The position numbers were made by a program, and so were the translations under genes. The notes under the pieces were generated by a model that did no database searches, was not told where the DNA came from, and saw only the letters and a program-made list of their open reading frames with translations. A stretch of 64,000 nucleotides of DNA from Gammaproteobacteria bacterium (GTDB lineage Bacteria > Pseudomonadota > Gammaproteobacteria > Steroidobacterales > JACDCP01). Numbering within the stretch: position 1 is the stretch's first letter; every line of letters begins with the position of its first letter. Location: assembly GCA_050740235.1 (NCBI GenBank), contig JBOIDB010000072.1, positions 972 to 64,971 of the forward strand. Direction: 5' to 3'. Positions 8,538 to 57,502 of this stretch are shown piece by piece.

Positions 8538-9513
8538 GGCCGTAGCCCTGCAGAAAACCGCAGTGGCCGCCGAAGGTCGTGGTTTCGATGGTCAGACACT
8601 GCGGCGCCTTCAGCCGCCCCGCGTCCGCGAAAGGGATGATCGGATCGTCGATGGCGAGAATGACATGCGACGGCACCGACAGCTCGTCGAGCGCCCCGTC
8701 GACGATGCCGTAGCCTTTCAGATAGGCGGCAAGATCCGCAAACTCCGAATGGTGGCGCACCAGATAGTCCGTCATTTCCGTCAATGTCTTCAGCGCCAGC
8801 AGCTCGCGAAAGTCATAGATACCGGGATGACAGGACTGCTTGAGCTTGAGCGAGCGCTTCCACTTGCCGACGAAATGCAGCCGGTAGCCGAGCCAGCCGG
8901 ATTCGAGCGCCTCGAGCGTGTGCTCGGGATCGAGCACCGGGCAGACCGCGACTACGCGTTCGATGGCGAGATTCGCCTTGCGGGCTCGCGCGGCCACGCG
9001 AAGCGCGAAGTTTCCGCCAAGCGAGAAGCCGGCGAGATAAAGCCGATGCTGCGGAAGCCTGCGGGCGATTGCCTGCACGGCGCCGACGACTTCGTCGAGG
9101 CGGCAGGAATGGAAGACCTCGACGTTCAGGTGATGGCTTGCGCCGTGATCGCGAAGATTCAGCCGGAAGACGTCGAAACCGCGCGCATACAGATGCGCGG
9201 CCGCGGAAAGCTGGTAGGTCGAATCGGCGCTGCCCTCCCAGCCGTGAATGAGCACGACGATGCGAGGGGACATGCCCGACTTCGCGTCTGCGAAATCAGG
9301 CATGTCCCCTTTTGCCTGCGACGCTCCGTGCGAAGGCCCCGCGTAATAACCCTGCAAGCGCACGCCGGCGCCGCAATCGAGCACCAGGGGCCGCGAGGCT
9401 TCGAGGAGCTTGCGCGCTCGACGCATGACGAACGGGCGGCGCAGCCGCATGCTCGCGAGCACCGCCTGCACGTGCGGATTGCGCAGCGCGCGGTTGGGAA
9501 CGAATGGGCTCAA
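8476..9513 (-). CDS. Alpha/beta hydrolase, YheT/ABHD-type
   Basis: VVLIHGWEGSADS, nucleophile elbow GFSLGG, N-terminal F.P.R.L.NPH.Q. TTG start at 9513. The 3' end overlaps the convergent FGGY kinase gene by 62 bp. Confidence 0.8.
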   Translation of the reverse strand: MSPFVPNRALRNPHVQAVLASMRLRRPFVMRRARKLLEASRPLVLDCGAGVRLQGYYAGPSHGASQAKGDMPDFADAKSGMSPRIVVLIHGWEGSADSTYQLSAAAHLYARGFDVFRLNLRDHGASHHLNVEVFHSCRLDEVVGAVQAIARRLPQHRLYLAGFSLGGNFALRVAARARKANLAIERVVAVCPVLDPEHTLEALESGWLGYRLHFVGKWKRSLKLKQSCHPGIYDFRELLALKTLTEMTDYLVRHHSEFADLAAYLKGYGIVDGALDELSVPSHVILAIDDPIIPFADAGRLKAPQCLTIETTTFGGHCGFLQGYGLTSWIDARILDALTSESRSA

Positions 9514-9529
9514 TCAGCGAAAAAGAAGA

Positions 9530-9615
9530 GGAAAATCGGGGTCAGACCGAGATTTCGCGAATGACACCCAAAGAATTTCGTGGGCTGCGAAATCCCGGTC
9601 TGAGCCCGATTTTCC
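9530..9615. repeat. Family-A inverted-repeat element (copy A1)
   Basis: Left arm GGAAAATCGGGGTCAGACCGAGATTTCGC (9530-9558) matches the reverse complement of right arm 9587-9615 at 27/29 positions, with a ~28-nt spacer. The core AATCGGGGTCAGACCGRGATTT recurs at 49865-49952. Confidence 0.85.
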
Positions 9616-9635
9616 CGGCCATCCCACGGCGACCG

Positions 9636-10967
9636 TCATCGATCCTCCGACAACTCGAATCTGACCCGGTTGTTGAGGCTCGCGATCCGGTTCCACTCGC
9701 CCGCCGTCACGCCGGTGGCCGGCTGCGGGTACTCGACCAGCGGCGCCTCGACGCCGAACGGGACGACTTCGATCGCGATCTCGCCGCCCGTGAGCTCGTC
9801 GGTGCCGGCGAGAAAGTTCGCGAACGCAATGGAGCTGCGCTCGCCGGTTTCCATGCCAGGATTGCCCTGCACATCGCAGCTCGCGGCGGGCAGGTCGGCC
9901 GGCGGAAGGGCGTAACCGTCGGCGGCATTGCCGACCAGGCAGAAGCGCCCGGCATGCGTCTCGAGCCGCACCACTCCGCTGAACCCGACGGCGAGCAGAC
10001 GTTCGACGAGTCCCTGCAGAAGGTCGAGCCGCTGGTCGTTCAATGCGATTTCGTCGGGGCCGACGGCGCCGGCCTGATTGACGCTCCATTCGATCGCTTC
10101 GAGCATCCGGGCATCGGCGTTGCCGGTCAGGTCGCGCTGCTCGCGCAGCGAGCCTTCCAGCGCGATCGACTCCGTGGTGGCGGCGATCTGCTGGTCCTCG
10201 AGCGCCGCGGCGAGCTCGGCGTTCTGCTCGCGCAGATTCATCCAGCGCTGCTCCGATTCGAAGTACAAACCGAAGAACAGCAACGACAGGAACACCAGCG
10301 CACCGATCGCGATCAACGTGGCGACCGGCCGGATGGTTCGATCGGGCGGCGGCAGCAGCTCGGCCCGTACCGGCGGCGGCTCGCCATTCTGCGCGTCCTC
10401 TTCCTTGATTTCCTCGGCGACACGCCGCGCCACGGCCTCGTAGCCGTCGAGCAGCTCGCGCTTGAAGGTTTCCGTCTGCTGCTCGAACAGCCGTTCGAGA
10501 AACGCGCGCAGATTGGCGTCCACCTCGCTGACCTCCCGTGCATCCGGTGCCGACGCGGCTTCGCCGCCGGCCGCTGCCGCGGCGCGGCCCGCCGCCGGCA
10601 CGAGGTGCAGCGATTCGAGCACCCTGGAGACCTCGACCGGCTGGATTTCCTTGGGCAGAACGCCCACCGCGCCCAGCGCGCGCGCCTGACCCACGTAGAG
10701 CTCGCCGCGCTGGGAGGTGTACATCATGATCGGGATCGTAGCCGTGCGCGGGTTGTCCTTGATGACGCGCACCGCCTGAAACCCGTCCATGCCGGGCATC
10801 AGATGATCCATGAAAATCACGTCCGGCCGGTGCGCGCTCAGGTACTCGAGCGCTTCCTCCGCGGACTCGGCGGCGTCGACTTCGAGGTCGTGCGCCTTGA
10901 GCATGCGGCTCAGGAAGAATCGGGCGGATTTCGAGTCATCGACGATGAGAGCACGCTTGGCCGGCAT
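9636..10967 (-). CDS. Response regulator receiver domain fused to a transmembrane segment and a C-terminal domain of unknown function
   Basis: ATG 10967 with GGGGAGAGGGG upstream. CheY-like MPAKRALIVDDSKSARFFL...VIFMDHLMPGMDG...PKEI. One predicted TM helix (VATLIAIGALVFLSLLFFGLYF), then coiled-coil-like sequence and an unassigned ~190-aa domain. The track ORF start at 11147 is an over-extension. Confidence 0.8.
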   Translation of the reverse strand: MPAKRALIVDDSKSARFFLSRMLKAHDLEVDAAESAEEALEYLSAHRPDVIFMDHLMPGMDGFQAVRVIKDNPRTATIPIMMYTSQRGELYVGQARALGAVGVLPKEIQPVEVSRVLESLHLVPAAGRAAAAAGGEAASAPDAREVSEVDANLRAFLERLFEQQTETFKRELLDGYEAVARRVAEEIKEEDAQNGEPPPVRAELLPPPDRTIRPVATLIAIGALVFLSLLFFGLYFESEQRWMNLREQNAELAAALEDQQIAATTESIALEGSLREQRDLTGNADARMLEAIEWSVNQAGAVGPDEIALNDQRLDLLQGLVERLLAVGFSGVVRLETHAGRFCLVGNAADGYALPPADLPAASCDVQGNPGMETGERSSIAFANFLAGTDELTGGEIAIEVVPFGVEAPLVEYPQPATGVTAGEWNRIASLNNRVRFELSEDR

Positions 10968-11131
10968 GTCCCCTCTCCCCTTGCAAGACGCATCCGTGCA
11001 TCGCCGAGCACCCTCTCGGCATCCGGTTGGCTGTCGCAGTAGCCACGGCGACGCTGCCATTTTACACACGGGCGGCTCGACGGCCACGATAATCTGCGAA
11101 GCTGGCCCATCCGGAGACCGAACGGGAAATA

Positions 11132-13249
11132 ATGTCGCCGTTTTCACGCCCCAGACGGCCGCGTTGGCCGGGAAGGCCGGGCGCGCGGGCCGCGCGGCTG
11201 CTGCTTCTGGCCGTTATCGGCCTGCGGGCGGTGAATGCATTCGGCATCGATCGGCTCTGGCTGGAGATCGGCGATCTGGAGGCTTCGTTCGGCTCGGCGG
11301 AAGGCGTCCGGCTCGCGCTCGAGCCGGACCGCAACGGCGGCGCGCCGGCCGTCTCGCTGCATGCGCGCGCGGTGCTGCTCCCGGCGCCGCTCGGACCCCT
11401 GACCGACGTTCGCATTGCCTGTCCGGCGCTCGTCAGCAGCGGCGGACGCTTTGCCTGTCGCGACGCGAAAGTCGTGGTGGGCGGCGCTCCGGTCGTGGGC
11501 GCACAGGAACTGCGCGCGGACGTCACATACGACACGGCCAGCGGCAAAGTCGAGATTCACGCGCGCGGCCTCGACTTCGCGCGGGCAAATGTCGACGTCG
11601 ATCTGCTCGGTATGCGGAATGACTGGACCGTCTTTGCTCGCGGGAACGGCCTGGATGCCGCGTCGCTCGGCGAGCTGGCGCATGAAACGGGTCTGCTCGA
11701 AAATCCGCCTGAAATCGCCGGGCAGGTCGATGTCGAAGTGCGCGCACGCGGTGACGGCAACGGGCTCGACGGCGCGAACTCGCAAATCGGTGCCGCCGCC
11801 TTGAGCGGCAGCGATGAGAGCGGTCGGCTGGCCGTCGAGGGTCTGGGGTTGTCGCTCGATCTCGGGCTGCAGGCGGAAAACGACGGCTGGGCGTTCGAGC
11901 TCGAGGCGAAATCCGACAGCGGGCAGCTCTACGTCGAGCCGTGGTTCGTCGAGCCCGGTGAAGCCGCCCTGGAGGTTTCCGCGCGCGGTGAGTACACCGC
12001 ATCCGCAGTTGCATTAGAAGAGTGGTCTTTTCGTCAAGACGGCGTGCTCGCCGCGTCGGGCTCCGCGAGCATCGCCCCGTTGCCCGAAGCAAGGGTCCAA
12101 CGCGCGCGCGTTCACATCGCCGAGGCGCGTTTCCCCGAGGCGTATCGAATCTGGCTGCAACCTTATCTCTATGGCGGCGCGCTGGACGCGCTCGCGACCT
12201 CGGGCCGGATGGAAGGCGAGATCGTGCTCGCGGAGCAAGGCGCGCAACGCATCGCGCTCACGGCGCACGACCTGAGCATCGACGATACGGGAAGGCGCTT
12301 TGCCGTCTACGGTCTGAACGGGTCGCTGCATTGGGACGACGGGGGGGCGGCGGTGAATGTCTCGCGTCTTTCATGGGACGGTGGCTTCGTGTTCGGCATC
12401 GGCTTCGGCGCGGCCGGGCTCGCGGCCGAAACCGGCGGGCGGGCATTCCGGCTGCTCGAGCCCCTGGCGCTTCCCGTGCTCGACGGCAGCCTGCTAGTTC
12501 GCGAGCTTGCCGTCAGCCGGTTCGGCCTGCCGGAGCTCGAGATCGCCTTCGACGCCGAGCTCGAGCCGCTCGACATGCGCGCGCTGACGGCGGCGCTCGA
12601 CTGGCCGTCGTTGTCGGGGCAGCTTTCCGGTCGGATACCCGACCTTAGCTATGCGGACGGCGCGGTTACCCTGGGCGGCGACCTGACGGCCGACGTGTTC
12701 GGCGGCACGATCACGGTCGGCAATCTGCGGTTGCGCGATCCGTTCGGCACGCTGCCCCGGCTCGCCGCGGACGTCCGGCTGCGCGGACTGAACCTCGAGT
12801 CCGTGACGAATACCTTCGAGATCGGCCGCATCGAAGGCGGCCTCGATGGCGATATCGAGAATCTGCGCCTTTTCCGCTGGACGCCCATCGCTTTCGACGC
12901 GCGCCTGTACACGCCGCCGGACGACGAGCTGCGGCACCGCATCAGCCAGCGCGCGGTGGAAAGCATCTCGAGCCTGGGCGGCGGCGGCGCGACGGCGGCC
13001 CTGTCGAGCGGCTTCCTGCAGTTCTTCGAGAATTTCGCCTATGCGCGTCTCGGCCTCGGCTGCCGGCTCCGAAACGGCGTGTGCCACATGCAGGGCGTCG
13101 GTCCGGCGCCGACGGGCGGCTACTACATCGTCGAAGGCAAATGGTTGCCGCGCATCGACGTCATAGGCCACGCGGAGCTTGTCGACTGGCCGGTGTTGCT
13201 CGAGCAGCTCTCGAGTCTCGCGGAAGCCGACGCAGTCGTCGTTCGCTAG
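11132..13249 (+). CDS. YdbH-like (AsmA-like/DctA-YdbH domain) large envelope protein
   Basis: N-terminal anchor RLLLLAVIGLRAV. C-terminal ...FRWTPIAFDARLYTPPDDELRHRISQRAVESISSLGGGG...GYYIVEGKWLPRIDVIGH resembles YdbH C-termini. It is followed by a YdbL-like gene, as in the enterobacterial ydbH-ynbE-ydbL operon. Confidence 0.6.
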   Translation: MSPFSRPRRPRWPGRPGARAARLLLLAVIGLRAVNAFGIDRLWLEIGDLEASFGSAEGVRLALEPDRNGGAPAVSLHARAVLLPAPLGPLTDVRIACPALVSSGGRFACRDAKVVVGGAPVVGAQELRADVTYDTASGKVEIHARGLDFARANVDVDLLGMRNDWTVFARGNGLDAASLGELAHETGLLENPPEIAGQVDVEVRARGDGNGLDGANSQIGAAALSGSDESGRLAVEGLGLSLDLGLQAENDGWAFELEAKSDSGQLYVEPWFVEPGEAALEVSARGEYTASAVALEEWSFRQDGVLAASGSASIAPLPEARVQRARVHIAEARFPEAYRIWLQPYLYGGALDALATSGRMEGEIVLAEQGAQRIALTAHDLSIDDTGRRFAVYGLNGSLHWDDGGAAVNVSRLSWDGGFVFGIGFGAAGLAAETGGRAFRLLEPLALPVLDGSLLVRELAVSRFGLPELEIAFDAELEPLDMRALTAALDWPSLSGQLSGRIPDLSYADGAVTLGGDLTADVFGGTITVGNLRLRDPFGTLPRLAADVRLRGLNLESVTNTFEIGRIEGGLDGDIENLRLFRWTPIAFDARLYTPPDDELRHRISQRAVESISSLGGGGATAALSSGFLQFFENFAYARLGLGCRLRNGVCHMQGVGPAPTGGYYIVEGKWLPRIDVIGHAELVDWPVLLEQLSSLAEADAVVVR

Positions 13250-13350
13250 AAACCGCGGAGTGGTCTCAGTGACGAACCGAAATGGCCGGCCGGGGGAATT
13301 CGCCGCGCCTATTGGCTACAATCACCATCATAAATCCGCGGAGACGAAGC

Positions 13351-13965
13351 ATGGGGCGCAAAACTCTCGTCCGGCTGAGCCTTGCCGGGCTGTTCCTCGC
13401 AGCCTGCGTAACCATCAATGTGTACTTCCCGGAGGCGGCGGCCGAACGCGCGGCCGACAGGGTCATCGACAATGTGTGGGGCGAGCAGCCACCGGCGCAG
13501 CCGCGTGCCGTCGAACCGCCGACCACGGGCATCGTGCCGAAGCCCGCGACGAATCTTTTCGCACACGCCGTCTCGACGGCGCTCGCAATGGCGGTGCCGG
13601 CCGCTCATGCACAGGCGGATTTCGATATATCCACCCCGGCAATCGATGCTCTGGTCTCCTCGATGGCGCAACGCTTCCCTGCTTTGGAGCCATATTTCGA
13701 ATCGGGCGCGATCGGCCTTTCCGCCGATGCCACGATCGACTTCCGCGATCGGAATCTGGTGCCGCTGCCGGAGCGCAATCGCGTACGCCAGCTCGTTGCC
13801 GACGAGAACGCGGATCGCAACAACCTCTATCGAGAGATTGCGCAGGCCAACGGGCACCCGGAGTGGGAAAGCCGCGTTCGGGCGACGTTCGCGGAACGGT
13901 GGATCGCCCGCGCGCGCAAAGGGTGGTTCTATCGGAACGAAGGCGGTGAGTGGGCACAGAAGTAG
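13351..13965 (+). CDS. YdbL-like (DUF1318) lipoprotein
   Basis: ATG 13351 preceded by GGAGACGAAGC. Lipobox LAGLFLAAC. C-terminal ...RNRVRQLVADENADRNNLYREIAQANGHPEW... is typical of DUF1318/YdbL. Confidence 0.7.
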   Translation: MGRKTLVRLSLAGLFLAACVTINVYFPEAAAERAADRVIDNVWGEQPPAQPRAVEPPTTGIVPKPATNLFAHAVSTALAMAVPAAHAQADFDISTPAIDALVSSMAQRFPALEPYFESGAIGLSADATIDFRDRNLVPLPERNRVRQLVADENADRNNLYREIAQANGHPEWESRVRATFAERWIARARKGWFYRNEGGEWAQK

Positions 13966-13966
13966 T

Positions 13967-13988
13967 GGGCCGGCGGCCCGTATTATTG
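13967..13988 (+). terminator. Possible intrinsic terminator after the ydbL-like gene
   Basis: GGGCC-GGC-GGCCC stem-loop (13967-13979) followed by the T-rich GTATTATTG, 1 nt after stop codon TAG 13963-13965. Confidence 0.4.
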
Positions 13989-14250
13989 CTGCAACGCGTT
14001 CCTTCGCACGGGGTCCAAACAAAACAAGGTAATCGAGCCCGCGTGAATTCCGGGTTTTTATCCGGAAATGGCCGTTTTATGTTAAAAAGACTGGCGCGCC
14101 GACCGCCAACTGTGGTCTGCTGCCCCGGAGTGCCGGGAACAATAAGAACAAACAGGCAGGCGTGCGTCCGCGCGCAGACGGACCGGTACGGATCATGAAA
14201 CGATATTCGGACTACACACGGCTCGATGGCATGGAGACGGGAGCCGCCGC

Positions 14251-16719
14251 GTGAAGCTGCAGCGTCTGCAGCTCAAGCAACTCCTGCTCGCGGTCGGGCT
14301 GACGGCCGGAACGGCGATCATCCTGTCCGCCATCCTGCTGACCGATTTTCGCGTTTTTACCGACGAGCTGCGGCGGCTCGCCGTCAGCAGCAACGAAACG
14401 ACACTGCGCGACGGCCTGTTGTCGCGCGCGCAGCTCACTGCCCTCGACACGGCGGACCGGCTTGCGGCGCCGCTTGCGGCCGAAGATCCCGCTTCCATCT
14501 TTGCCATCGCGGACATCGCGCTCGCGCGCGATGACGTAAGACGGCTGGTAATCACGGACAGCGCCGGCGCAGTAGTTCTCGATACGGCCGCGGAGGAACC
14601 GAATGCCGCGCCGATCGATCCTGCGCTCGAAGAGCCGCTGTGGACCGACGATACGCTGCTCGTGAGCGCGCCGGTGCGCGCGGCAGGCAGCGAGCTCGGC
14701 CGCGTTCAACTGACGCTTTCGCTGGATTCGCTGAACGGCGCGCTCGGCAACGTCGGCCGGGATATCCGCGAGGTCGACCGCCGTCAGTTGAAGCGAAGCC
14801 TCGTGCTCATCGTGATCACCAGCGGCATCCTGACGATCATCGGCATGCTGTTCGCCCGCCACGGCGCGCAACGCATCATAGTTCCCCTGCGCGAGCTGAC
14901 GCGCCGCGCGGCGCTGCTCAGCCAGGCGCCGCCGGAGGAGCGCCTGCAAATGCGGCGCAAGGACGAGCTCAGCGAGCTGGCGCAGGCCCTCGACGCCATC
15001 ATCCGCGAGCTCAAGAAGACGAGCAGCTCGCGCGACTATCTGGACAAGCTGCTGGCGAGCATGAACGATGCGGTCATAGTCATCTCGCCCGACGGCATCA
15101 TCAAGCGCGTGAACCAGAGCACGATGACGATGTTCGGCTACAGCGAGCCGGAGCTGCTCGGCCAGCCGTTGCAGTCCCTGCTGCCCGAGGACCGGCAACT
15201 CGATCTTTCGGTCAGCCAGATGTCCGTCGACGTGCTCGAATCCACCTTCGTCACACGCACCGGCCGGCACATCCCCGTTTCGCTGTCGAGCTCGCCGATC
15301 AGCACCGACGATCCGCAGTTCGAGGGCAAGATCCTCGTGGCCCGCGACATCACCGAGCGCAAGAAGGCCGAGAAGCGCATTCGTTTCCTGGCTCACTACG
15401 ATCCGCTCACCAAGGTACCGAATCGCATGCAGTTCCAGCATCTGCTGCAGCAGGCGATTGCCCGGGCGCGGCGCCAACGCCATGGCGTCGCGCTGCTCTA
15501 CATCGATCTCGACCGCTTCAAGGACATCAACGATACGTTCGGCCATCTCGCGGGAGACACGAGCCTGGAAACGGCCACGGCGCGGCTTCTGGCCGCCGTG
15601 CCCAAGGGCGCGATCGTCGGCCGGCTCGCCGGCGACGAGTTCGCAGTCATTCTCGACCGGCTGAACGCCGAGCGGAACGTCTCCACCGAGGTCGCGCAAG
15701 TGGCGCACGCGCTGCTCCGTTCGCTCGGCCATCCGTTCCGCGTGCAGGACAGCGAGGTGTTCCTGACCGCCAGCATAGGTATCGCGACGTACCCCGCGGA
15801 TGCGGACAATGTCATCGACCTGATCCGCAACGCCGACGCGGCGATGTACCACGCCAAGCAGATCGGCGGCAACAACTTCGAATGCTATACGCCGGAGATG
15901 AATGCGCAGGCGGTCGACCGGCTGATGATGAAGAGCAAGCTGCGCCGCGCGTTCGAGCGCAACGAGCTGATGCTGCAGTATCAGCCGAAGTACGACCTGA
16001 GCAATGGCGTCGTGGTCGGCGCCGAGGCATTGCTGCGCTGGGAGCTGCCGGGACACGGCACCATCGGTCCGTCGGAGTTCATCCCGCTCGCCGAGGAGAC
16101 CAACATGATCCTCGACATCGGCGAATGGGTGCTCGATCGGGTCTGCTCCGATTACAAGCTCTGGCAGAGCTCGATCCCGTCACCCGGGCGCGTGGCCGTC
16201 AATTTCTCGTTGAAGCAGCTCCGGCAGACGAACATCCGGCAGCGCATCGCGACGATCCTCGGCCGCCATGGCGTGGCGCCGCAGCGGCTCGAGCTCGAGA
16301 TCACGGAGACGACGCTCATGCAGGATGCCGAGCGGACCGTCGGCATCCTGCGCGAGCTGTTCGCCATGGGCTTGCACCTGTCGATCGACGACTTCGGCAC
16401 CGGCTACTCGTCGCTCAGCTCCCTGCAGCAGTTCCCGATCGGCACGCTCAAGATCGACCGGTCGTTCGTGCGGGACGCCGCCACGGACCCCGACGACGCG
16501 ACCATCGTGTCGATGATCATCGACATGGGCCGCAGCCTCAACATGGAGGTCGTCGCGGAGGGCGTGGAGAACGAAGAGCAGTTGTCGTTCCTGCGCAAGC
16601 GGCGGTGCAACTACGCGCAGGGACATCTGTTCGGCGACCCCATGAGCGCCGATGACTACCTCGAGCTGCTGCTGCAACAGCAGCAGGGCACCGACCGCTA
16701 CCTGGCTTTGTTCGCATAG
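14251..16719 (+). CDS. Membrane sensor protein with HAMP-PAS-GGDEF(degenerate)-EAL architecture
   Basis: GTG start. Two TM segments flank a periplasmic-type region. PAS-like region (MNDAVIVISPDGIIKRVNQS). The GGDEF site reads RLAGDEFAV (AGDEF). The EAL domain is intact (GAEALLRW, DDFGTGYSSL, KIDRSF). Confidence 0.9.
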   Translation: MKLQRLQLKQLLLAVGLTAGTAIILSAILLTDFRVFTDELRRLAVSSNETTLRDGLLSRAQLTALDTADRLAAPLAAEDPASIFAIADIALARDDVRRLVITDSAGAVVLDTAAEEPNAAPIDPALEEPLWTDDTLLVSAPVRAAGSELGRVQLTLSLDSLNGALGNVGRDIREVDRRQLKRSLVLIVITSGILTIIGMLFARHGAQRIIVPLRELTRRAALLSQAPPEERLQMRRKDELSELAQALDAIIRELKKTSSSRDYLDKLLASMNDAVIVISPDGIIKRVNQSTMTMFGYSEPELLGQPLQSLLPEDRQLDLSVSQMSVDVLESTFVTRTGRHIPVSLSSSPISTDDPQFEGKILVARDITERKKAEKRIRFLAHYDPLTKVPNRMQFQHLLQQAIARARRQRHGVALLYIDLDRFKDINDTFGHLAGDTSLETATARLLAAVPKGAIVGRLAGDEFAVILDRLNAERNVSTEVAQVAHALLRSLGHPFRVQDSEVFLTASIGIATYPADADNVIDLIRNADAAMYHAKQIGGNNFECYTPEMNAQAVDRLMMKSKLRRAFERNELMLQYQPKYDLSNGVVVGAEALLRWELPGHGTIGPSEFIPLAEETNMILDIGEWVLDRVCSDYKLWQSSIPSPGRVAVNFSLKQLRQTNIRQRIATILGRHGVAPQRLELEITETTLMQDAERTVGILRELFAMGLHLSIDDFGTGYSSLSSLQQFPIGTLKIDRSFVRDAATDPDDATIVSMIIDMGRSLNMEVVAEGVENEEQLSFLRKRRCNYAQGHLFGDPMSADDYLELLLQQQQGTDRYLALFA

Positions 16720-16727
16720 GGACATTC

Positions 16728-17903
16728 CTATCTTCCCAGGCCTGCCGCTTCTTCCTCGCCGTACCCGGCCAGCTCGACATAGCCTTCGCCCGTCGCGGCT
16801 TTTCCTCCATTGCCTCCTGCCACGCGCACCGCGCCTTCCCAGTAACGCACGCTGAGATCCATTTCCTGCGCTTCGACGTACGGTTGCACGTCGAGGACGA
16901 TGCTTTCGTTCGGCAACCGGAGCCGCCAGCCCATCGGGTAGGTCACGCCGCTGTCGGGGCTGGTCCATGAGCCGCTGCTCTCGATGGTGACATCGTGGGC
17001 GCCGAGCGCGCGGCGTGAACCATCCGCCGCCACGAGCGAGCCGGCGCTGAACGGATCGACGTCGCCGTCCTTACGCCGCAACCGGTAGAACATGATGTCG
17101 GTGCCGTCATCGAGCTGCAGCGCGAACCAGTCCCAGCCCGACAGGTGCTCACCGAGCGCACCGCTGCTCCACTCGCGGTCCAACCAGGCGCGGCCTTCGA
17201 CATCGAAGCTTTCGCCGTCGACGGTTATCCCGCCTGAGGCCGCGAGGCGTGTGAACGAGTAATAATAGGATGCGTCGCCGGGCGCCGGGCCCTTGCGGCT
17301 CAGGCCCGCGTCACCGTTGAGCACGACGGGCTTCGAGGTTGTCAGCGTCAAATCCAGTGCCATCGACTTGTCGCGCGCGTTCAGCCGCAGCGGGAGAAAC
17401 TCTTTACCCGCGCTCGCGGCGGACCAGTCGCCTAGCCAGACGCGAAACGGCTCCACCTTCGCACCGGCAAGGCCGAGCGCTGCGCGGTCGAATCGCTCCG
17501 CGGCGATATGCCGGCGGCCGGCCGTGTCCGTCACGGCGAAATGCGCCATGTAAACCTGGTCGGCGGCCCATGCGGAGTCACGCTCCGGCGCTTCCACCGC
17601 GAGCGCGAAGCGGAAGAACGTGATCTGGAAGCCGAAGTGTCGGCCCGCCGCATTTCGCAGATTGCCGGTGACATACCACCATTCGGTGCGGTAGTCCGGA
17701 TGCGGGCCGTGATCGGCCGGAAAGCGGATCGCACCGGGCTCAGTCGCCTGGGCGAATTCGCCGGACGGCGAATCGCCCAGCAGTCGCGCGACGCCGGGCG
17801 AGTCATCCCGACCGCCATCCGGCGGCAGCATCAGCCACGCGACGACCAGCGCGAAGGTGATCGCGCCGAGTGTCAGTGCCAGTGCACGGCCGTTCACGTT
17901 CAC
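16728..17903 (-). CDS. AttH-like lipocalin/CrtC-hydratase-fold protein
   Basis: GTG 17903 overlaps the permease stop (GTGA). FPADHGPHPDYRTEWWYVTGNL....FGFQITFFR is the AttH/hydroxyneurosporene-synthase-like signature. The track ORF to 18662 is an over-extension. Confidence 0.8.
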   Translation of the reverse strand: MNVNGRALALTLGAITFALVVAWLMLPPDGGRDDSPGVARLLGDSPSGEFAQATEPGAIRFPADHGPHPDYRTEWWYVTGNLRNAAGRHFGFQITFFRFALAVEAPERDSAWAADQVYMAHFAVTDTAGRRHIAAERFDRAALGLAGAKVEPFRVWLGDWSAASAGKEFLPLRLNARDKSMALDLTLTTSKPVVLNGDAGLSRKGPAPGDASYYYSFTRLAASGGITVDGESFDVEGRAWLDREWSSGALGEHLSGWDWFALQLDDGTDIMFYRLRRKDGDVDPFSAGSLVAADGSRRALGAHDVTIESSGSWTSPDSGVTYPMGWRLRLPNESIVLDVQPYVEAQEMDLSVRYWEGAVRVAGGNGGKAATGEGYVELAGYGEEEAAGLGR

Positions 17904-34306: not shown

Positions 34307-34385
34307 CGGTCGCGCTTCGCTTCCCGTGGCGACAACGCTAGCTTCGCTCGCGCACCGGCAAATCCCATCGCAAGGGCGGGGATCA

Positions 34386-34419
34386 TGAAAAAGCCATGGA
34401 TGGCTTTTTCGACATCCTG
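34386..34419. repeat. 34-nt hairpin element (copy 1)
   Basis: TGAAAAAGCCATGGATGGCTTTTTCGACATCCTG matches the reverse complement of 55583-55616 at 33/34 positions. It lies 14 nt upstream of the kef-type gene ATG, inside a divergent intergenic region. Confidence 0.85.
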
Positions 34420-34432
34420 ATAATCTTTCGCG

Positions 34433-36448
34433 ATGCCTTACGGTGTCCTCGCGCAGATTCTCGTCCTGCTGGCGGCCTCGGTGCTGGTCGTCACGCTCTT
34501 CCGGCGCATGCTCCTGCCGCCGATCCTCGGTTATCTGCTGGTCGGCGTGCTGCTCGGCCCGTATGCGGCCGGCTGGATTCCGAATACCGAGGATGTCCGG
34601 TTCCTCGCCGAGATCGGCGTCGTGTTCCTGCTGTTCACGCTCGGGCTCGAGTTCTCGCTGCCGCGCATGATCGCCATGCGCTGGGAGGTTCTCGGGCTGG
34701 GCACCGCGCAGGTCGTCGTGACCACGCTGTTCGCTTCGCTCATCGCCTGGTGGCTCGGCGCGCAGCCGGCCAGCGCCGTCGTCGTCGGCGGCGCCGTCGC
34801 GATGTCATCCACGGCTATCGTCATCAAGCAGCTCGGCGAACAGCTCGAGCTCAGCGGCGTCCACGGCCGGCATGCCGTGGGCATCCTGCTGTTCCAGGAT
34901 ATCGCCGTCGTGCTCTTCCTGGCCCTGATCCCGGTGCTTGCCGCGCGCATCGCTCCCGACGTCGAGACCGGCCCGTCGATCTGGCGGGCGCTGGCGCAGG
35001 CGGCGATCGCGCTGGTCATCGTGCTGGCGGCCGGTCACTGGCTGCTGCGGCCGCTGTTCCACGAGATCGCGCACCGGCGCACGGCCGAGCTGTTCACGCT
35101 CACAGTGCTGCTGGTCGCCCTCGCAGCCGCCTGGGCCACGCACGCCGCGGGCCTGTCGCTCGCGCTGGGCGCTTTCCTGGCGGGCATGATGCTCGGCGAG
35201 ACCGAATACCGGCATCAGATCGAGGCCGATATCCGGCCGTTCCGCGACATCCTCCTGGGCCTGTTCTTCATCACGATGGGCATGATGCTCGACCTCGAGC
35301 TGCTCGCCGACCGCGCCGGCGTCATTACGCTGCTCGTCGTCACGCTGATCTTCCTCAAGGCCGGTGTGGTGATGCTGGTGTCGCGTCGCATGTCCGATAC
35401 CTGGAATCAGGCGGCGCGCACTGGCCTGGTCCTCGCGCAGGGCAGCGAGTTCGGCTTCGCGCTGCTCACGCTCGGCCTGCAGGACCGTCTCATCGCGCCC
35501 GCCGTCGCCCAGCCGCTGCTGGCCGCGATCGTAGTCAGCATGGCCTTCAGCCCGCTGATCATCCGCTACAACGGCCGCATTGCGCGCCTGTTCTTCGGCA
35601 AGCCGGATATCGACGTCGCCGACCTGCTGCGCGAAGAGGCCGCGACCGATGCGGTCGCGCACCGGGAGCACGTGATCATCTGCGGTTATGGCCGCGTCGG
35701 CCAGAACCTGGCGCGCATCCTCGAGCAGGAAGGCTTTGAGTTCATCGGCCTCGACCTCGACCCGTTCCGCGTACGCGCCGCGCGCCAGGGTGGCGATCCG
35801 GTCGTTTACGGCGACGCCTCGCAAGGGGGGATGCTCGAGACCGTCGGCCTCGAGCATGCCAGCGTTGTCGTCATCAGCTTTGCCGATCACGGCGCGGCGC
35901 TCCGAATCCTGTCCAAAGTCAGACAGCGGCGTCCCGACGTGCCCGTGCTCGTGAGGACGCAGGACGACACCAATCTCGACCGGCTGAAGGCCGCCGGCGC
36001 GACGGAAGTCATCCCGGAAACGCTCGAAGCGAGCCTCAGCCTGGTCTCACACGTGCTCTTGCTGTTGCACGTTCCGGTATCGCACGTCGTGCGCCGGATC
36101 GGCGACATCCGCAATCACCGCTACCGCATGTTCCGCAATATCTTTCGCAAACAGAACGCGCGCGTGCTCGACATCTCGCACGCGTTCCGCGAGCAGCTCC
36201 ACGCGATCACGCTGCCGCCCGGCGCCCGCGCCGTCGGCCATACGCTGGCCGAGCTCGAGCTGGAGGGCGCCGAGATCGCGGTCACGGCGATCCGCCGGGA
36301 TGGCATCGTTGGCCGGCAACCGCTGCCGGAAACGGTCCTGAAGGAAGACGACGTGCTGGTCCTGTACGGGACGCCCGAGGCGCTCGAGCACGGCGAGGCG
36401 ATCCTGCTGACGGGACGGTGGCGCGGGCAGCCGGTCGAAGGACATTAG
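34433..36448 (+). CDS. CPA2-family monovalent cation:proton antiporter / K+ efflux protein with TrkA-N and TrkA-C domains
   Basis: About 12 TM helices (Kef/YbaL-like), then the Rossmann motif VIICGYGRVGQNLA and a C-terminal TrkA-C-like region. Confidence 0.9.
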   Translation: MPYGVLAQILVLLAASVLVVTLFRRMLLPPILGYLLVGVLLGPYAAGWIPNTEDVRFLAEIGVVFLLFTLGLEFSLPRMIAMRWEVLGLGTAQVVVTTLFASLIAWWLGAQPASAVVVGGAVAMSSTAIVIKQLGEQLELSGVHGRHAVGILLFQDIAVVLFLALIPVLAARIAPDVETGPSIWRALAQAAIALVIVLAAGHWLLRPLFHEIAHRRTAELFTLTVLLVALAAAWATHAAGLSLALGAFLAGMMLGETEYRHQIEADIRPFRDILLGLFFITMGMMLDLELLADRAGVITLLVVTLIFLKAGVVMLVSRRMSDTWNQAARTGLVLAQGSEFGFALLTLGLQDRLIAPAVAQPLLAAIVVSMAFSPLIIRYNGRIARLFFGKPDIDVADLLREEAATDAVAHREHVIICGYGRVGQNLARILEQEGFEFIGLDLDPFRVRAARQGGDPVVYGDASQGGMLETVGLEHASVVVISFADHGAALRILSKVRQRRPDVPVLVRTQDDTNLDRLKAAGATEVIPETLEASLSLVSHVLLLLHVPVSHVVRRIGDIRNHRYRMFRNIFRKQNARVLDISHAFREQLHAITLPPGARAVGHTLAELELEGAEIAVTAIRRDGIVGRQPLPETVLKEDDVLVLYGTPEALEHGEAILLTGRWRGQPVEGH

Positions 36449-54433: not shown

Positions 54434-55582
54434 ATGGGCAGCCAACGACACTTGAAACCGGAAACGCTCGCGATACACGCCGGCCGCAGGCCGGGCGCGG
54501 AATCCGGCGCCGTCACCCCGCCGATCCACCTGTCGACGACTTACGTGCGCGCGGCCGACGGCAGCCTGCTGCACGGACACAACTACAGCCGCGAATCCAA
54601 TCCGACGCGCGACGCGCTCGAAGCCGGCCTCAGCGCCCTGGAAGGCGGCCGCGCCGCCGCGGCCTTCGCTTCAGGCTCTGCAGCGGCTCTGGCCGTCTTC
54701 AACACGGTGGACCCGGGCGGGCACATTGTCGCCTCCGCGGACGCCTATCACGGCATCGTCCGGCAACTCCGTGAGATCGTCGCCCGCTGGGGCACAGTGG
54801 TCTCGCTCGCCGATGCCAGCGATCCGGAGGCGGTGCGCGCGGCGATGCGCAAGGACACGCGCCTGGTCTGGATCGAAACGCCGTCCAACCCGCTGCTCAA
54901 GATCACGGACATCGGCGCCCTTGCGGAAATTGCGCATTCCGGCGGGGGCGTCCTGGCCTGCGACAACACGTTCGCGACCCCGATCCTGCAGCAACCGCTC
55001 GCGCTCGGCGCGGATCTCGTCGTGCACAGCACGACGAAATACATCGGCGGGCACAGCGATATCGTCGGCGGTGTGGTCGTCGCCCGCGAGAACGACGAGC
55101 GCTTTGCGCGAATCCGGCACTTTCAGGCGATCGGGGGCGCGGCGCCTTCGCCGTTCGATTGCTGGCTGCTCCAGCGCAGTATTGCCACATTGCCGTGTCG
55201 AGTCCGCACCCAATCCGAGTCGGCGGCAACCATTGCGCAGTTCCTGATGCGACGCACGGACGTCGAGAGCACGCTCTATCCCGGACTCTCGACCCATGCC
55301 GGGCACGCGCTGGCGGCGCGTCAGATGAAAGCGTTCGGCGGCATGTTGTCCTTCTGCGTTCGGGGCGGCGCTGCGGAAGCACTGCGCGTCGCAGCCGGCG
55401 TTCGCCTGTTCACGCGCGCAACCAGTCTCGGCGGCATCGAGAGCCTGATCGAGCACCGCGCTTCCTCTGAAGGACCGCACACACGCGCGCCCGCCAATCT
55501 GCTGCGCCTGTCCATCGGGCTCGAGCATGCCGACGACCTGAAAGCTGATCTCGAGAACGCGCTCGACGCGGCCGCGCTCTAA
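54434..55582 (+). CDS. Cys/Met-metabolism PLP-dependent enzyme (cystathionine gamma-synthase / beta- or gamma-lyase family)
   Basis: From ATG 54434: ...ETLAIHAGR....GAV.PPIHLSTTY...SR..NPTR.ALE, then STTKYIGGHSD (PLP lysine region). The track ORF from 53393 is an over-extension. Confidence 0.85.
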   Translation: MGSQRHLKPETLAIHAGRRPGAESGAVTPPIHLSTTYVRAADGSLLHGHNYSRESNPTRDALEAGLSALEGGRAAAAFASGSAAALAVFNTVDPGGHIVASADAYHGIVRQLREIVARWGTVVSLADASDPEAVRAAMRKDTRLVWIETPSNPLLKITDIGALAEIAHSGGGVLACDNTFATPILQQPLALGADLVVHSTTKYIGGHSDIVGGVVVARENDERFARIRHFQAIGGAAPSPFDCWLLQRSIATLPCRVRTQSESAATIAQFLMRRTDVESTLYPGLSTHAGHALAARQMKAFGGMLSFCVRGGAAEALRVAAGVRLFTRATSLGGIESLIEHRASSEGPHTRAPANLLRLSIGLEHADDLKADLENALDAAAL

Positions 55583-55590
55583 CAGGATGT

Positions 55591-55748
55591 TGAAAAAGCC
55601 ATCCATGGCTTTTTCACCTTTGCGATCCGAAAAGTGTGATTTTCGGATCGCAAGCATTTTCAAGAACTTGCAGTTCTCGAAAATGGCGATGCATCCATGC
55701 ATCGCTTAGCAGGCTGCCAAAAAACAGAGTACTACAACAGCCTGCTAA
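55591..55748. repeat. Five contiguous hairpins in a convergent intergenic region
   Basis: H1 55591-55616 (11 bp, loop TCCA). H2 55621-55652 (13 bp). H3 55655-55685 (14 bp with 1 mismatch). H4 55686-55705 (8 bp, loop TCCA). H5 55706-55748 (11 bp, 21-nt loop). Gaps between hairpins are 0-4 nt. Confidence 0.9.
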
Positions 55749-55799
55749 ACGCCGGTATGTCTTGATCCCGAATCCGGCACCGTGGACGGCGACATTCGC

Positions 55800-56579
55800 C
55801 TAATCGCGAATTCCCACGCCGCGATTCATCAGGAACAGGCTGAAACCGAACAGCCCGACGACGAAACCGACGATGATCGCGTAGGCGGTGCCGAGGTTCA
55901 CGTCGGAGACGCCCAGCACGCCGTAGCGGAACGCGTTCACCATGTAGAGGATCGGGTTGGCCTTCGACAAGTCCTGCCAGAACTCCGGCAACAGCGAGAT
56001 CGAGTAGAACACACCGCCGAGGTAGGTGAGCGGCGTGAGAATGAACGTGGGCACGATGGTGACGTCATCGAATTTGCGCGCGAATATGGCGTTGATGAAG
56101 CCGCCGAGCGAAAACACGACCGCGGTCAAAAGGACCACCGACAGCGTGATGAGCGGATGCTCGAGCTCGAGATCGGTGAACAGCAACGCGATCGCGGTCA
56201 CGACGAGGCCGACGAGAAATCCGCGGGCGACGCCGCCGGCCACGTGGCCGAGGATGATCATCGAATTGGGCAGTGGAGAAACCAGCAGCTCCTCGATGTG
56301 CTTGCCGAACTTGGCGCCGAAGAACGACGAGACGACGTTGCCGTACGAGTTGGTGATGATCGACATCATGATCAGCCCGGGCGCTATAAACTGCATGTAA
56401 TCGAAGCCGCCCATCTCGCCTATGCGTGTGCCGATGAGGCTGCCGAAGATGACGAAGTACAGCGTCATGGTAATCGCCGGCGGCACGATGGTCTGCACCC
56501 AGATGCGCAGCACGCGCACGACCTCCTTGCGCAGGATCGTGTAGAGACCAATGAGGTCTTCCCTGATGCGCATGCTCAT
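55800..56579 (-). CDS. ABC-2-type transporter permease (YadH-like)
   Basis: 259 aa with six TM helices, typical of ABC-2 permeases. The start overlaps the ATPase stop. Confidence 0.85.
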   Translation of the reverse strand: MSMRIREDLIGLYTILRKEVVRVLRIWVQTIVPPAITMTLYFVIFGSLIGTRIGEMGGFDYMQFIAPGLIMMSIITNSYGNVVSSFFGAKFGKHIEELLVSPLPNSMIILGHVAGGVARGFLVGLVVTAIALLFTDLELEHPLITLSVVLLTAVVFSLGGFINAIFARKFDDVTIVPTFILTPLTYLGGVFYSISLLPEFWQDLSKANPILYMVNAFRYGVLGVSDVNLGTAYAIIVGFVVGLFGFSLFLMNRGVGIRD

Positions 56580-57502
56580 GGCGCGACGGCACCCTTCGCT
56601 TCCACGAGGCGCATAAACAGTTCCTCGAGGCGATTCGTCTTGTTGCGCATGCTGAGCACATGCAGGTTTTGCTCGGTGAGCATCGCGAACAGGCTATTGA
56701 TGCTGCGCTCGCGGGAGACGTCCACCTCGAGGCTCGTCTCGTCGATCATACGCACTTCATAGCCGTCGAGCCTGGGCGGCGTCTGCACGTGCTCACGCAG
56801 GTTGAGCACGAAGGTTTCCATCGTGAGCTTGCGCAGCACGTTCGCCATGCGGTCGTGCTCGATGATTCGCCCGCCGTCGATGATCGCGATGTTGCGGCAG
56901 AGATTCTCGGCCTCCTCGAGATAATGCGTCGTCAGGATGATCGTCGTGCCTTCGCGGTTGATCTTGCGCATGAACCGCCACATGGAGCGACGGATCTCGA
57001 TGTCGACGCCGGCCGTCGGCTCGTCGAGGATCAGCAGCCGCGGCTCGTGCACCAGCGCGCGAGCGATCATCAGGCGCCGCTTCATGCCGCCGGAGAGATT
57101 GCGGGAGATGTCGCCGCGTCTTTCCCATAGATACAGCTCTTTCAGATACTTCTCGGCGCGCTTCTTCGCGGCGCTGCGGGGTATGCCGTAATAGCCGGCC
57201 TGGTTGAGGACGATGTCGCCGACCTTCTCGAACTGGTTGAAGTTGATCTCCTGCGGCACGAGGCCGATGCAGGCCTTGGCCGCCTCCAGCTCGCGGTCGA
57301 TGTCGTGATCGAACACCTGCACACTGCCGCCGGTCTTGTTCACGAGCGAGGTGACGATGCCGATGGCGGTGGTCTTGCCCGCGCCGTTCGGCCCGAGCAG
57401 GGCGAAGAAATCGCCCTCGGCTACTTCCAGGTCGATCCCTTTGAGGGCCTGAACACCATTGCGATACGTCTTGGAGAGGTTTGCGAGCCTGAGAGCCGAC
57501 AT
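56576..57502 (-). CDS. ABC transporter ATP-binding protein (YadG-like)
   Basis: Walker A GPNGAGKTT, signature LSGGMKRR, Walker B LLILDEPT. Confidence 0.9.
   Translation of the reverse strand: MSALRLANLSKTYRNGVQALKGIDLEVAEGDFFALLGPNGAGKTTAIGIVTSLVNKTGGSVQVFDHDIDRELEAAKACIGLVPQEINFNQFEKVGDIVLNQAGYYGIPRSAAKKRAEKYLKELYLWERRGDISRNLSGGMKRRLMIARALVHEPRLLILDEPTAGVDIEIRRSMWRFMRKINREGTTIILTTHYLEEAENLCRNIAIIDGGRIIEHDRMANVLRKLTMETFVLNLREHVQTPPRLDGYEVRMIDETSLEVDVSRERSINSLFAMLTEQNLHVLSMRNKTNRLEELFMRLVEAKGAVAP

Follow-up and report, generated by a model that had tools for sequence, protein, structure and literature searches.

Why does the short spacer between two convergent genes carry five consecutive hairpins, which is more than termination requires? 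The locus lies within a 64-kb window, by which we mean the whole stretch of DNA that was analyzed, and all coordinates refer to it. The genes concerned are the following:

54434-55582, plus strand: gene of a trans-sulfuration PLP enzyme (Cys_Met_Meta_PP, PF01053), 382 aa, with its TAA stop codon at 55580-55582
55800-56579, minus strand: gene of an ABC-2 type transporter permease, convergent with the PLP gene, with its stop codon at 55800-55802; the ortholog carries PF01061 (ABC2_membrane)
56576-57502: gene of the ATPase of the ABC-2 transporter

Five hairpins in a convergent spacer

The spacer from the PLP stop to the permease stop (55583-55799) measured 217 bp; a preliminary description of this DNA had correctly called it convergent and had given its length as 218 bp. 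The AT-richness mentioned there was also observed, with a GC content of 0.447 in 55575-55724 vs. 0.65-0.70 in the flanking genes (approximately 67%). Most of the spacer (55591-55751) is occupied by five stable hairpins, here named H1 to H5:

55591-55602/55605-55616 (arms), plus strand: H1, 12 nt, perfect, with A5/T5 flanks; -13.7 kcal/mol
55620-55633/55640-55653 (arms), plus strand: H2, 14 nt, perfect; -22.1 kcal/mol
55655-55668/55672-55685 (arms), plus strand: H3, 14 nt, one mismatch; -12.3 kcal/mol on the plus strand and -15.5 kcal/mol on the minus strand
55686-55694/55697-55705 (arms), plus strand: H4, 8-9 bp, perfect
55703-55716/55738-55751 (arms), plus strand: H5, 14 nt, one mismatch, with a 21-nt loop

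All five inverted repeats of the preliminary description were recovered at this place, including the start 9 nt past the PLP stop (H1 begins at 55591 and the stop ends at 55582) and the loop context CATCCATG common to H1 and H4. The stem lengths given there were approximately one pair off, a difference that comes from the counting of loop-closing pairs.

The fold lay far beyond that of shuffled sequences. The 226-nt region folded with -97.9 kcal/mol (z = -9.6) on the plus strand and with -103.9 kcal/mol (z = -8.4) on the minus strand, and in both cases none of 200 shuffles was as good. Hairpins folded separately gave z values from -3.9 to -8.4. The energy of H5 was -25.3 kcal/mol on the minus strand vs. 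-17.8 kcal/mol on the plus strand, and the H3 mismatch, an A.C on the plus strand, is a G.U pair on the minus strand.

A promoter and terminator scan of the region revealed no recognisable promoter and called none of H1-H5 a terminator, and a scan against Rfam 15 (E up to 10) yielded chance-level matches only (E 1.3-8.9, far under the gathering scores). H1 had previously been likened to a bidirectional intrinsic terminator. Its A5/T5 flanks are indeed present, but the T5 is itself base-paired to the A5 and the G+C core comprises only the 4 bp GCCA/UGGC; together with the negative scan, this does not uphold the terminator call, although weak or non-canonical termination may occur. A G+C-rich stem followed by a U tract, as in intrinsic terminators, was found in none of the five hairpins.

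Among the relatives of the PLP enzyme, the three closest (77-86% identical) retain the same convergent PLP/ABC-2 gene pair. The two genes overlap by approximately 44 nt in L001 and L004 and are separated by 36 nt in L003, and no hairpin block was found at the junction in any of the three. The extra spacer DNA is therefore specific to the lineage of the window. A BLAST search of the spacer against the PLSDB plasmids gave no match; with the flanking genes as queries, the matches in this collection were limited to unrelated ABC-ATPases.

A dispersed element with terminal repeats and a target duplication

We scanned for the 22-nt core of H1, with one genome per species, which returned 90 stretches. 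At least 19 loci were found in the gammaproteobacterial MAG MGR_bin311, and at least 14 in the Magnetococcales MAG DC0425bin3, while three Woeseiaceae MAGs held several each. Additional loci came from SGMAG-18, IDS-8, Lysobacterales, Nevskia, Desulfobulbia/Desulfurivibrio, Desulfarculia and one Deltaproteobacteria MAG, while Planctomycetes held shorter variants. H1 had no match when viral contigs were scanned. In the great majority of the copies in multi-copy MAGs, H1 is followed by H2, H3, H4 and H5, and copies measure 153-169 nt from flanking TA to flanking TA. A separate search for each hairpin, as had been proposed, showed that the five travel jointly and in fixed order, with only H1 also occurring alone. 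Many copies are shortened at random points, and in L030 and L058 only a 40-48-nt palindrome is left, consisting of the two terminal repeats around GCCATCCATGGC.

The boundaries of the unit were set by a MAFFT alignment of 21 copies from MGR_bin311 with the copy of the window. Since the similarity starts exactly at CAGG and stops exactly at CCTG, the unit corresponds to 55583-55744, with the following parts:

55579-55582: left target-site duplication CTAA, the TAA of which is the PLP stop codon
55583-55744, plus strand: body of the MITE (miniature inverted-repeat transposable element), CAGG...CCTG, 162 nt, aligned with the copies of a related MAG; family orientation H1 to H5
55583-55602, plus strand: left terminal inverted repeat CAGGATGTTGAAAAAGCCAT, which is also the 5' arm of H1
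55725-55744, minus strand: right terminal inverted repeat, degraded, GTACTACAACAGCCTG (family GTTTTTCAACAGCCTG)
55745-55748: right target-site duplication CTAA
55749-55799: leftover spacer, 51 nt of non-repeat intergenic DNA predating the insertion, outside the family alignment

The window copy was detected by nhmmer with E = 5e-44 over 55581-55747. Its terminal inverted repeats are roughly 16-20 nt long (CAGGMTGTTGAAAAAGCCAT), and the family alignment ends in CAGGMTGTTGAAAAA(GCCAT) on the left and in its complement on the right. In H1, the left terminal repeat pairs with a partial inverted copy of itself within the element; in H5, the partner of the right terminal repeat is an internal repeat copy (TTAGCAGGCTG...). 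Both hairpins thus exist because each terminal repeat pairs with an internal inverted copy of itself. In gammaproteobacterial copies, the H5 consensus is a hairpin of 17-19 bp (...CAGGCTGTCGAAAAAC..GTTTTTCAACAGCCTG). The inner part of the right repeat of the window copy reads GTACTACAAC where the family has GTTTTTCAAC. The right repeat carries three substitutions, and its outer 10 nt are intact. In H5, the mutated part no longer forms the inner half of the stem, which accounts for the 21-nt loop. Overall, the window copy is 84-89% identical to the copies of MGR_bin311. It looks like a decaying fossil and is probably immobile. The only ORF over it is a 55-aa GTG ORF that runs out of the element, and the element encodes no protein.

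The 64 kb of the source genome covered here contain a single full copy, along with a solo end and a remnant; H2-H5 have no second copy within the window. The two additional family traces are:

34380-34421, minus strand: solo left end/H1 palindrome, the second family member in the window (near-identical H1 copy at 34385-34421; nhmmer E = 1.9e-10, model positions 2-38)
approximately 10980-11006, plus strand: probable remnant of an older copy, in which GCATCCGTGCATCGCC resembles H4; the orthologous site in MGR_bin311 holds an internally deleted copy

The solo palindrome is located in a divergent promoter region and precedes the ATG (34433) of a gene for a Kef-like antiporter by approximately 12-16 nt.

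Filled and empty sites could be compared directly at a locus of MGR_bin311 (L029) that is orthologous to 9336-16729 of the window. Here, a copy at position 4087 (cgcTA|ACAGGATG...) corresponds to an empty site at window position 13245 (cgcTAGaaacc), the TAG of which is a stop codon. The second copy of this locus is internally deleted and sits at the site of the H4-like remnant of the window, and a third, degenerate one is absent from the window.

The flanks of the copies indicated a duplication of 4 bp. A perfect 4/4 direct repeat was present at 19 of the 38 copies with both ends, and eight of these 19 duplications were non-palindromic (CTAT, ATAG, TTAC, TTAT, GTAT, and three cases of CTAA, one of them the window copy). 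The flanks fitted a direct repeat better in 13 copies and an inverted one in 2, and the consensus target is CTAG/YTAR. In approximately 12 of the 38 copies, a long, high-GC3 flanking ORF ends in a stop codon that falls within the duplicated tetranucleotide (left side in 6, right side in 6), and at L059 the duplication supplies the stops of both convergent genes. By crude GC3-based ORF calls, copies lie between tandem genes (11 in one orientation vs. 9 in the other), convergent genes (9) and divergent genes (6); no orientation bias relative to the neighbouring genes was detected, either in the tandem contexts or in the sides on which the stop codons lie. As for the window, the site before insertion (ctcTAAacg) had a TAA stop that the left duplication rebuilt, so that the PLP protein is unchanged.

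Taken as a whole, the block is one composite dispersed repeat, and its five hairpins do exceed the needs of termination, as had been noted. The earlier suggestion of a composite BIME-like repeat was right as to its composite and dispersed nature but not as to the BIME or REP kind, as a GTAG or CGTC head is missing and terminal repeats and a 4-bp duplication are present.

Termini shared with IS5-family elements

The first 13-16 nt of the element ends (CAGGCTGTTGAAAAA...) match the termini of intact IS5-family elements that make the same 4-bp YTAR-type duplication. Three copies in the complete genome of Acidihalobacter yilgarnensis (CP017415) read CAGGCTGTTGAAAAAC...TTTCAACAGCCTG and are flanked by TTAA, CTAG and TTAA, respectively, and plasmid pTBH10 of Thiolapillus brandeum carries TTAG|CAGGGTGTTGAAAAAC...TTTTCAACGGCCTG|TTAG. 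Intact insertion sequences in MAGs have TTAG, TTAA or CTAA flanks, and the more distant ISRsp13 has TTAA flanks. The Thiolapillus transposase scored 271.8 bits on the NCBIfam model transpos_IS5_4 (cutoff 140) and contains the Pfam domains DUF772 and DDE_Tnp_1. Further, in a BLAST search of plasmids, the family consensus matched a defective element on pRR3-57 of Halioglobus pacificus at its right end. This element has a perfect 16-nt repeat (CAGCCTGTTGAAAAAG) with CTAG on both sides, is interrupted by an IS256-type element and retains an N-terminal transposase fragment, the homologs of which are annotated as IS5-family transposases. Approximately 106 Ralstonia megaplasmid matches to the consensus were rejected as a chance match of 31 nt, the copy in GMI1000 being without element structure.

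The window element thus shares its terminal 13-16 nt and its 4-bp YTAR duplication with IS5-subgroup insertion sequences (Acidihalobacter, Thiolapillus, ISRsp13), from which it differs in size and content: they are 1.3 kb long and encode a transposase, whereas it is 162 bp long and non-coding. The inner inverted copies of the terminal repeat that form H1 and H5 are likewise present in the window element and absent from the insertion sequences examined, and an inspection by eye of the interiors of intact ones revealed no counterpart of H2-H4. Nor does the H2-H4 interior resemble the ends of these insertion sequences. A tblastn search with the IS5 transposase gave no homolog, either in the window (64 kb) or among the 90 element loci (approximately 600 kb), an absence that is expected given the fragmentation of the MAGs. 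A regex and inverted-repeat scan of the 90 loci for an autonomous element between repeat pairs returned only the 160-nt MITEs and noise.

Terminal repeats, target duplication, small size without a transposase (MITEs measure less than about 300-500 bp), many dispersed copies and filled/empty sites are all found in this family. Because the matching ends come with the same YTAR 4-bp duplication, the window element is, as judged from its sequence, an IS5-type MITE with ends matching those of IS5-subgroup insertion sequences.

Conservation of the fold and alternative explanations

The conservation of the hairpins was analyzed in an alignment of 28 copies from about 14 genomes, all recruited via an exact match to the H1 core. 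RNAalifold recovered all five helices, with compensatory changes in 33 of 46 pairs. In the extended structure, both sides had changed in 37 of 51 pairs, and 92.6% of the cells were paired. The corresponding values were 76.2% for shuffled alignments and 30-47% when the partners were slid, and none of 500 shuffles reached any of the pairing measures. Changes on both sides affected 10 of the 11 pairs of H2, 12 of the 13 of H3 and 7 of the 8 of H4, and the stems of these three hairpins showed complete turnover between lineages. H1, on the other hand, was invariant in 28/28 aligned copies, an invariance that partly reflects the recruitment by exact H1 match and the fact that H1 belongs to the terminal repeat. 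The loops of H2 and H3 vary freely, while the H4 loop motif C(A/G)TCCNTG (CRTCCNTG) was kept in 24 of the 28 copies. On the minus strand, the loops of H1 and H4 read CA-NGGA-UG. The binding consensus of CsrA/RsmA is RUACARGGAUGU, and 23 of the 28 copies match it at 9-12 of its 12 positions. RNAs bound by these proteins display GGA in hairpin loops, with two or more sites on each molecule. Mismatches were more often A.C than G.T on the plus strand (65 vs. 31), a strand asymmetry that is non-independent evidence since 25 of the 65 A.C cases derive from two inherited sites.

DDE cut-and-paste transposition needs no internal hairpins, and the covariation therefore goes beyond a transposition model alone. 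The pattern of substitutions suggests that some selection likely acts on the single-stranded fold of H2-H5.

The explanation that we favor, with a probability of roughly 0.88, is that of an old copy of an IS5-type MITE, inserted in trans at CTAA, with hairpins that probably act as barriers at 3' ends. An IS5-family DDE transposase acting in trans would have excised the element and then inserted it into the CTAA holding the PLP stop codon; the insertion would have duplicated CTAA and left the stop intact. H2, H3 and H4 would be internal hairpins maintained across genomes through compensatory substitutions. Both convergent transcripts would meet hairpins with individual energies of -12 to -25 kcal/mol, and these folding energies suggest that the hairpins probably insulate the two genes or form a barrier at their 3' ends, and do not work as a canonical terminator. 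The conservation of the fold in the family would be explained most economically by selection for hairpins of this kind, whether harmless or useful.

Other origins of the block were weighed against this explanation. A set of redundant intrinsic terminators that arose in situ would fit the position between convergent genes, the start just past the stop codon and the A5/T5 flanks of H1. This possibility has a next to negligible probability, given that the whole block is a dispersed repeat that is bounded by terminal repeats and flanked by a duplicated target, that the same spacer is empty in three relatives, that all intergenic contexts including divergent ones are occupied, and that the scan called no terminator, the G+C part of the H1 stem being 4 bp. 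We also regard as very improbable a REP/BIME-type or palindrome-associated element moved by a Y1 (HUH) RAYT or IS200/IS605 transposase via single-stranded DNA hairpins. Such an origin would be consistent with an extragenic palindrome cluster that has similar stems at both ends (H1 and H5), and conserved hairpins would suit single-strand transposition. However, Y1 transposition (IS200/IS605, REP/RAYT) makes no target duplication and a 4-bp direct one is present here; further, the first bases past the YTAR flank are CAGG, in place of a GTAG or CGTC head, and its termini match those of DDE elements of the IS5 family. Initially, we considered an IS630/Tc1-mariner-type MITE that inserts at CTAG and duplicates only its TA, in line with the near-invariant TA beside both ends and with the CAGG starts, as mariner-type element ends begin with CAGG. 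Flank positions 1 and 4 also match in non-palindromic cases, so that the duplication is 4 bp and not 2, and the elements with matching ends encode transposases of the IS5 family and not of the IS630 family. The 4-bp non-palindromic duplications ruled out the TA-duplication reading, which we now hold to be highly improbable, and they led us to drop the Y1-type readings (REP/BIME, IS200/IS605) as well.

The conserved fold is also open to a different interpretation, in which the block, like the multi-hairpin RNA of the preliminary description, is a structured non-coding RNA module, e.g., for protein binding or as a portable bidirectional terminator or stabiliser, and the transposon ends are a mere vehicle. 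This is where the pairs that change on both sides while staying paired and the excess of paired cells over shuffles would find a ready place, as would the H4 stem that turns over around a kept loop motif, the better folding of the minus strand (H5, H3), the plus-strand excess of A.C over G.T, and the resemblance of the minus-strand H1 and H4 loops to the CsrA/RsmA consensus. Several observations nevertheless make it unlikely. Neither the tandem contexts nor the stop-codon sides show an orientation bias, copies also occur in divergent promoter regions (e.g., at window position 34385), no promoter-like site and no Rfam match were found, the A.C excess owes much to two inherited sites, and many copies are shortened at random, as for decaying selfish DNA. 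A more far-reaching version, which we consider rather doubtful, would be a portable RNA-structure cassette under purifying selection, spread between classes by IS5-type ends and, once transcribed, either binding a regulatory protein or acting as a bidirectional 3' end or insulator. Transcription from the minus strand, with its CsrA/RsmA-like loops in H1 and H4, would be of particular relevance in this case. If it were true, each stop-codon insertion would rewire the decay or the regulation of the neighbouring mRNA.

With regard to known relatives of an IS5-type MITE, Correia/NEMIS of Neisseria, ERIC/IRU of enterobacteria and RUP, BOX and SPRITE of pneumococcus have terminal repeats and a target duplication and are often co-transcribed with their neighbours. 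They are likewise small, non-coding, dispersed intergenic MITEs, with RNAs that fold into hairpins, but belong to other sequence families, parent insertion sequences and hosts than the window element. They form one long stem from their two ends, in contrast with the five separate short hairpins observed here, a plan kept by covariation across several bacterial classes (according to the labels of the MAG records). SPRITE has been described as terminator-like (review PMC10969869).

REP/BIME elements and REPINs, which are associated with RAYTs, are also extragenic palindrome clusters that often lie between convergent genes, and mRNA stabilisation or transcription termination has been proposed for them; the window element differs from them in its DDE-type terminal repeats and 4-bp duplication. 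REPs have a GTAG/CGTC head on an imperfect palindrome of 20-40 nt, no target duplication and a tie to a Y1 transposase (in part PMC3733652). Among eukaryotes, the window element can be compared with IS5 relatives, from which it is set apart by its 4-bp duplication and conserved multi-hairpin interior. These are the Tourist-like MITEs (PIF/Harbinger), which are non-autonomous, use TA-containing targets and make a 3-bp TAA/TTA duplication.

Literature searches with the H1 and terminal-repeat sequences and with IS701 plus YTAR retrieved no description of this MITE family, which is apparently undescribed, although MITEs as a kind are well known. Its unusual feature is the set of five separate short hairpins that covary across bacterial classes and include one conserved loop motif. 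Such a five-hairpin MITE is a good test case for the question of whether bacterial MITEs are selected for the action of their transcripts or for mobility only. Its exact boundaries also aid the annotation of MAGs, where blocks of this type may pass for terminators, small RNAs or riboswitch-like leaders. Finally, since in these G+C-rich genomes the YTAR target is often a TAG or TAA stop codon, stable hairpins are repeatedly laid onto 3' ends.

Loop motif of H4 and H1

In the alignment of 28 copies of the MITE, drawn from about 14 genomes (A1), the loops of the first and fourth hairpins occupy the following positions.

Window 55600-55607, A1 columns 21-28: H1 loop
Window 55692-55699, A1 columns 122-129: H4 loop

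The loop context C(A/G)TCCNTG, which corresponds to CA-NGGA-UG on the opposite strand, is kept in the H4 of 24 of the 28 copies, while the stem sequence of this hairpin turns over completely. The SELEX consensus of CsrA is RUACARGGAUGU, and the loop context of Lyso_L072, when read on the opposite strand, agrees with it at 12 of 12 positions.

Target duplication and stop codons of flanking genes

In about 12 of 38 copies (L059:368-534 and 11 others), the duplicated target tetranucleotide serves as a neighbouring gene's true stop codon; at L059:368-534, this applies to both convergent genes, which terminate within the two duplicated tetranucleotides. In genomes as G+C-rich as these, the YTAR preference of the family effectively amounts to a targeting of TAG/TAA stop codons.

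Solo, minimal and apparently decaying forms

Several loci carry reduced forms of the element.

Window 34380-34421, - strand: solo left-end/H1 palindrome, a member of the MITE family
L030:91-136, L058:2627-2666, L054 and L057: mini-elements 40-48 nt in length
Window 10980-11006: H4-like remnant (GCATCCGTGCATCGCC), with nothing else of the MITE kept
L029:1720-1850, in the related MAG MGR_bin311: orthologous copy from which H3 and half of H4 are missing

The solo palindrome lies within a divergent promoter region. A gene for a Kef-like cation/proton antiporter begins about 12-16 nt downstream of it, with its ATG at 34433, and the mRNA strand of this gene would carry the GGA-loop version of the hairpin immediately 5' of the start codon. 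The mini-elements consist of the two terminal repeats only, forming one perfect palindrome (TAGCAGTCTGTCGAAAAAGCCATCCATGGCTTTTTCGACAGACTGCTA), and may represent the shortest version of the family that can still move. The remnant at 10980-11006 and its counterpart in L029 look like an old insertion common to both genomes, decaying via different deletions in each.

Related elements in other genomes

The remaining loci include shorter variants and an IS5-type element.

L041:4649-4773 and L056:1953-2077 (Planctomycetes MAGs), L024 and L043 (Woeseiaceae): variants of reduced length (about 118-125 nt)
L096:683-2531: defective IS5-type element on the Halioglobus pacificus plasmid pRR3-57, in a record without annotation

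The shorter variants share their ends and H1 with the MITE family and have a different interior. Three Treponema MAGs (L011, L022 and L025) contain the same AAAAAGCCATCCATGGCTTTTT hairpin, adjoining further hairpins that share its loop context (GCGCCATCCTTGGCGC, GCGCCATCCGTGGCGC) and without the H2-H5 architecture; these sets may represent a separate repeat family with a motif in common. Two MGR_bin311 contigs (L060:4947-5113 and L061:5988-6156) carry one and the same MITE copy, flanks included, and are probably one redundantly assembled locus. Finally, about 270 bp at the left end and about 250 bp at the right end are preserved in the plasmid-borne IS5-type element. An IS256-family (Transposase_mut) element interrupts it; this insertion is bordered by a repeated CCAATGTGAG, and its own transposase ORF appears to be frameshifted.
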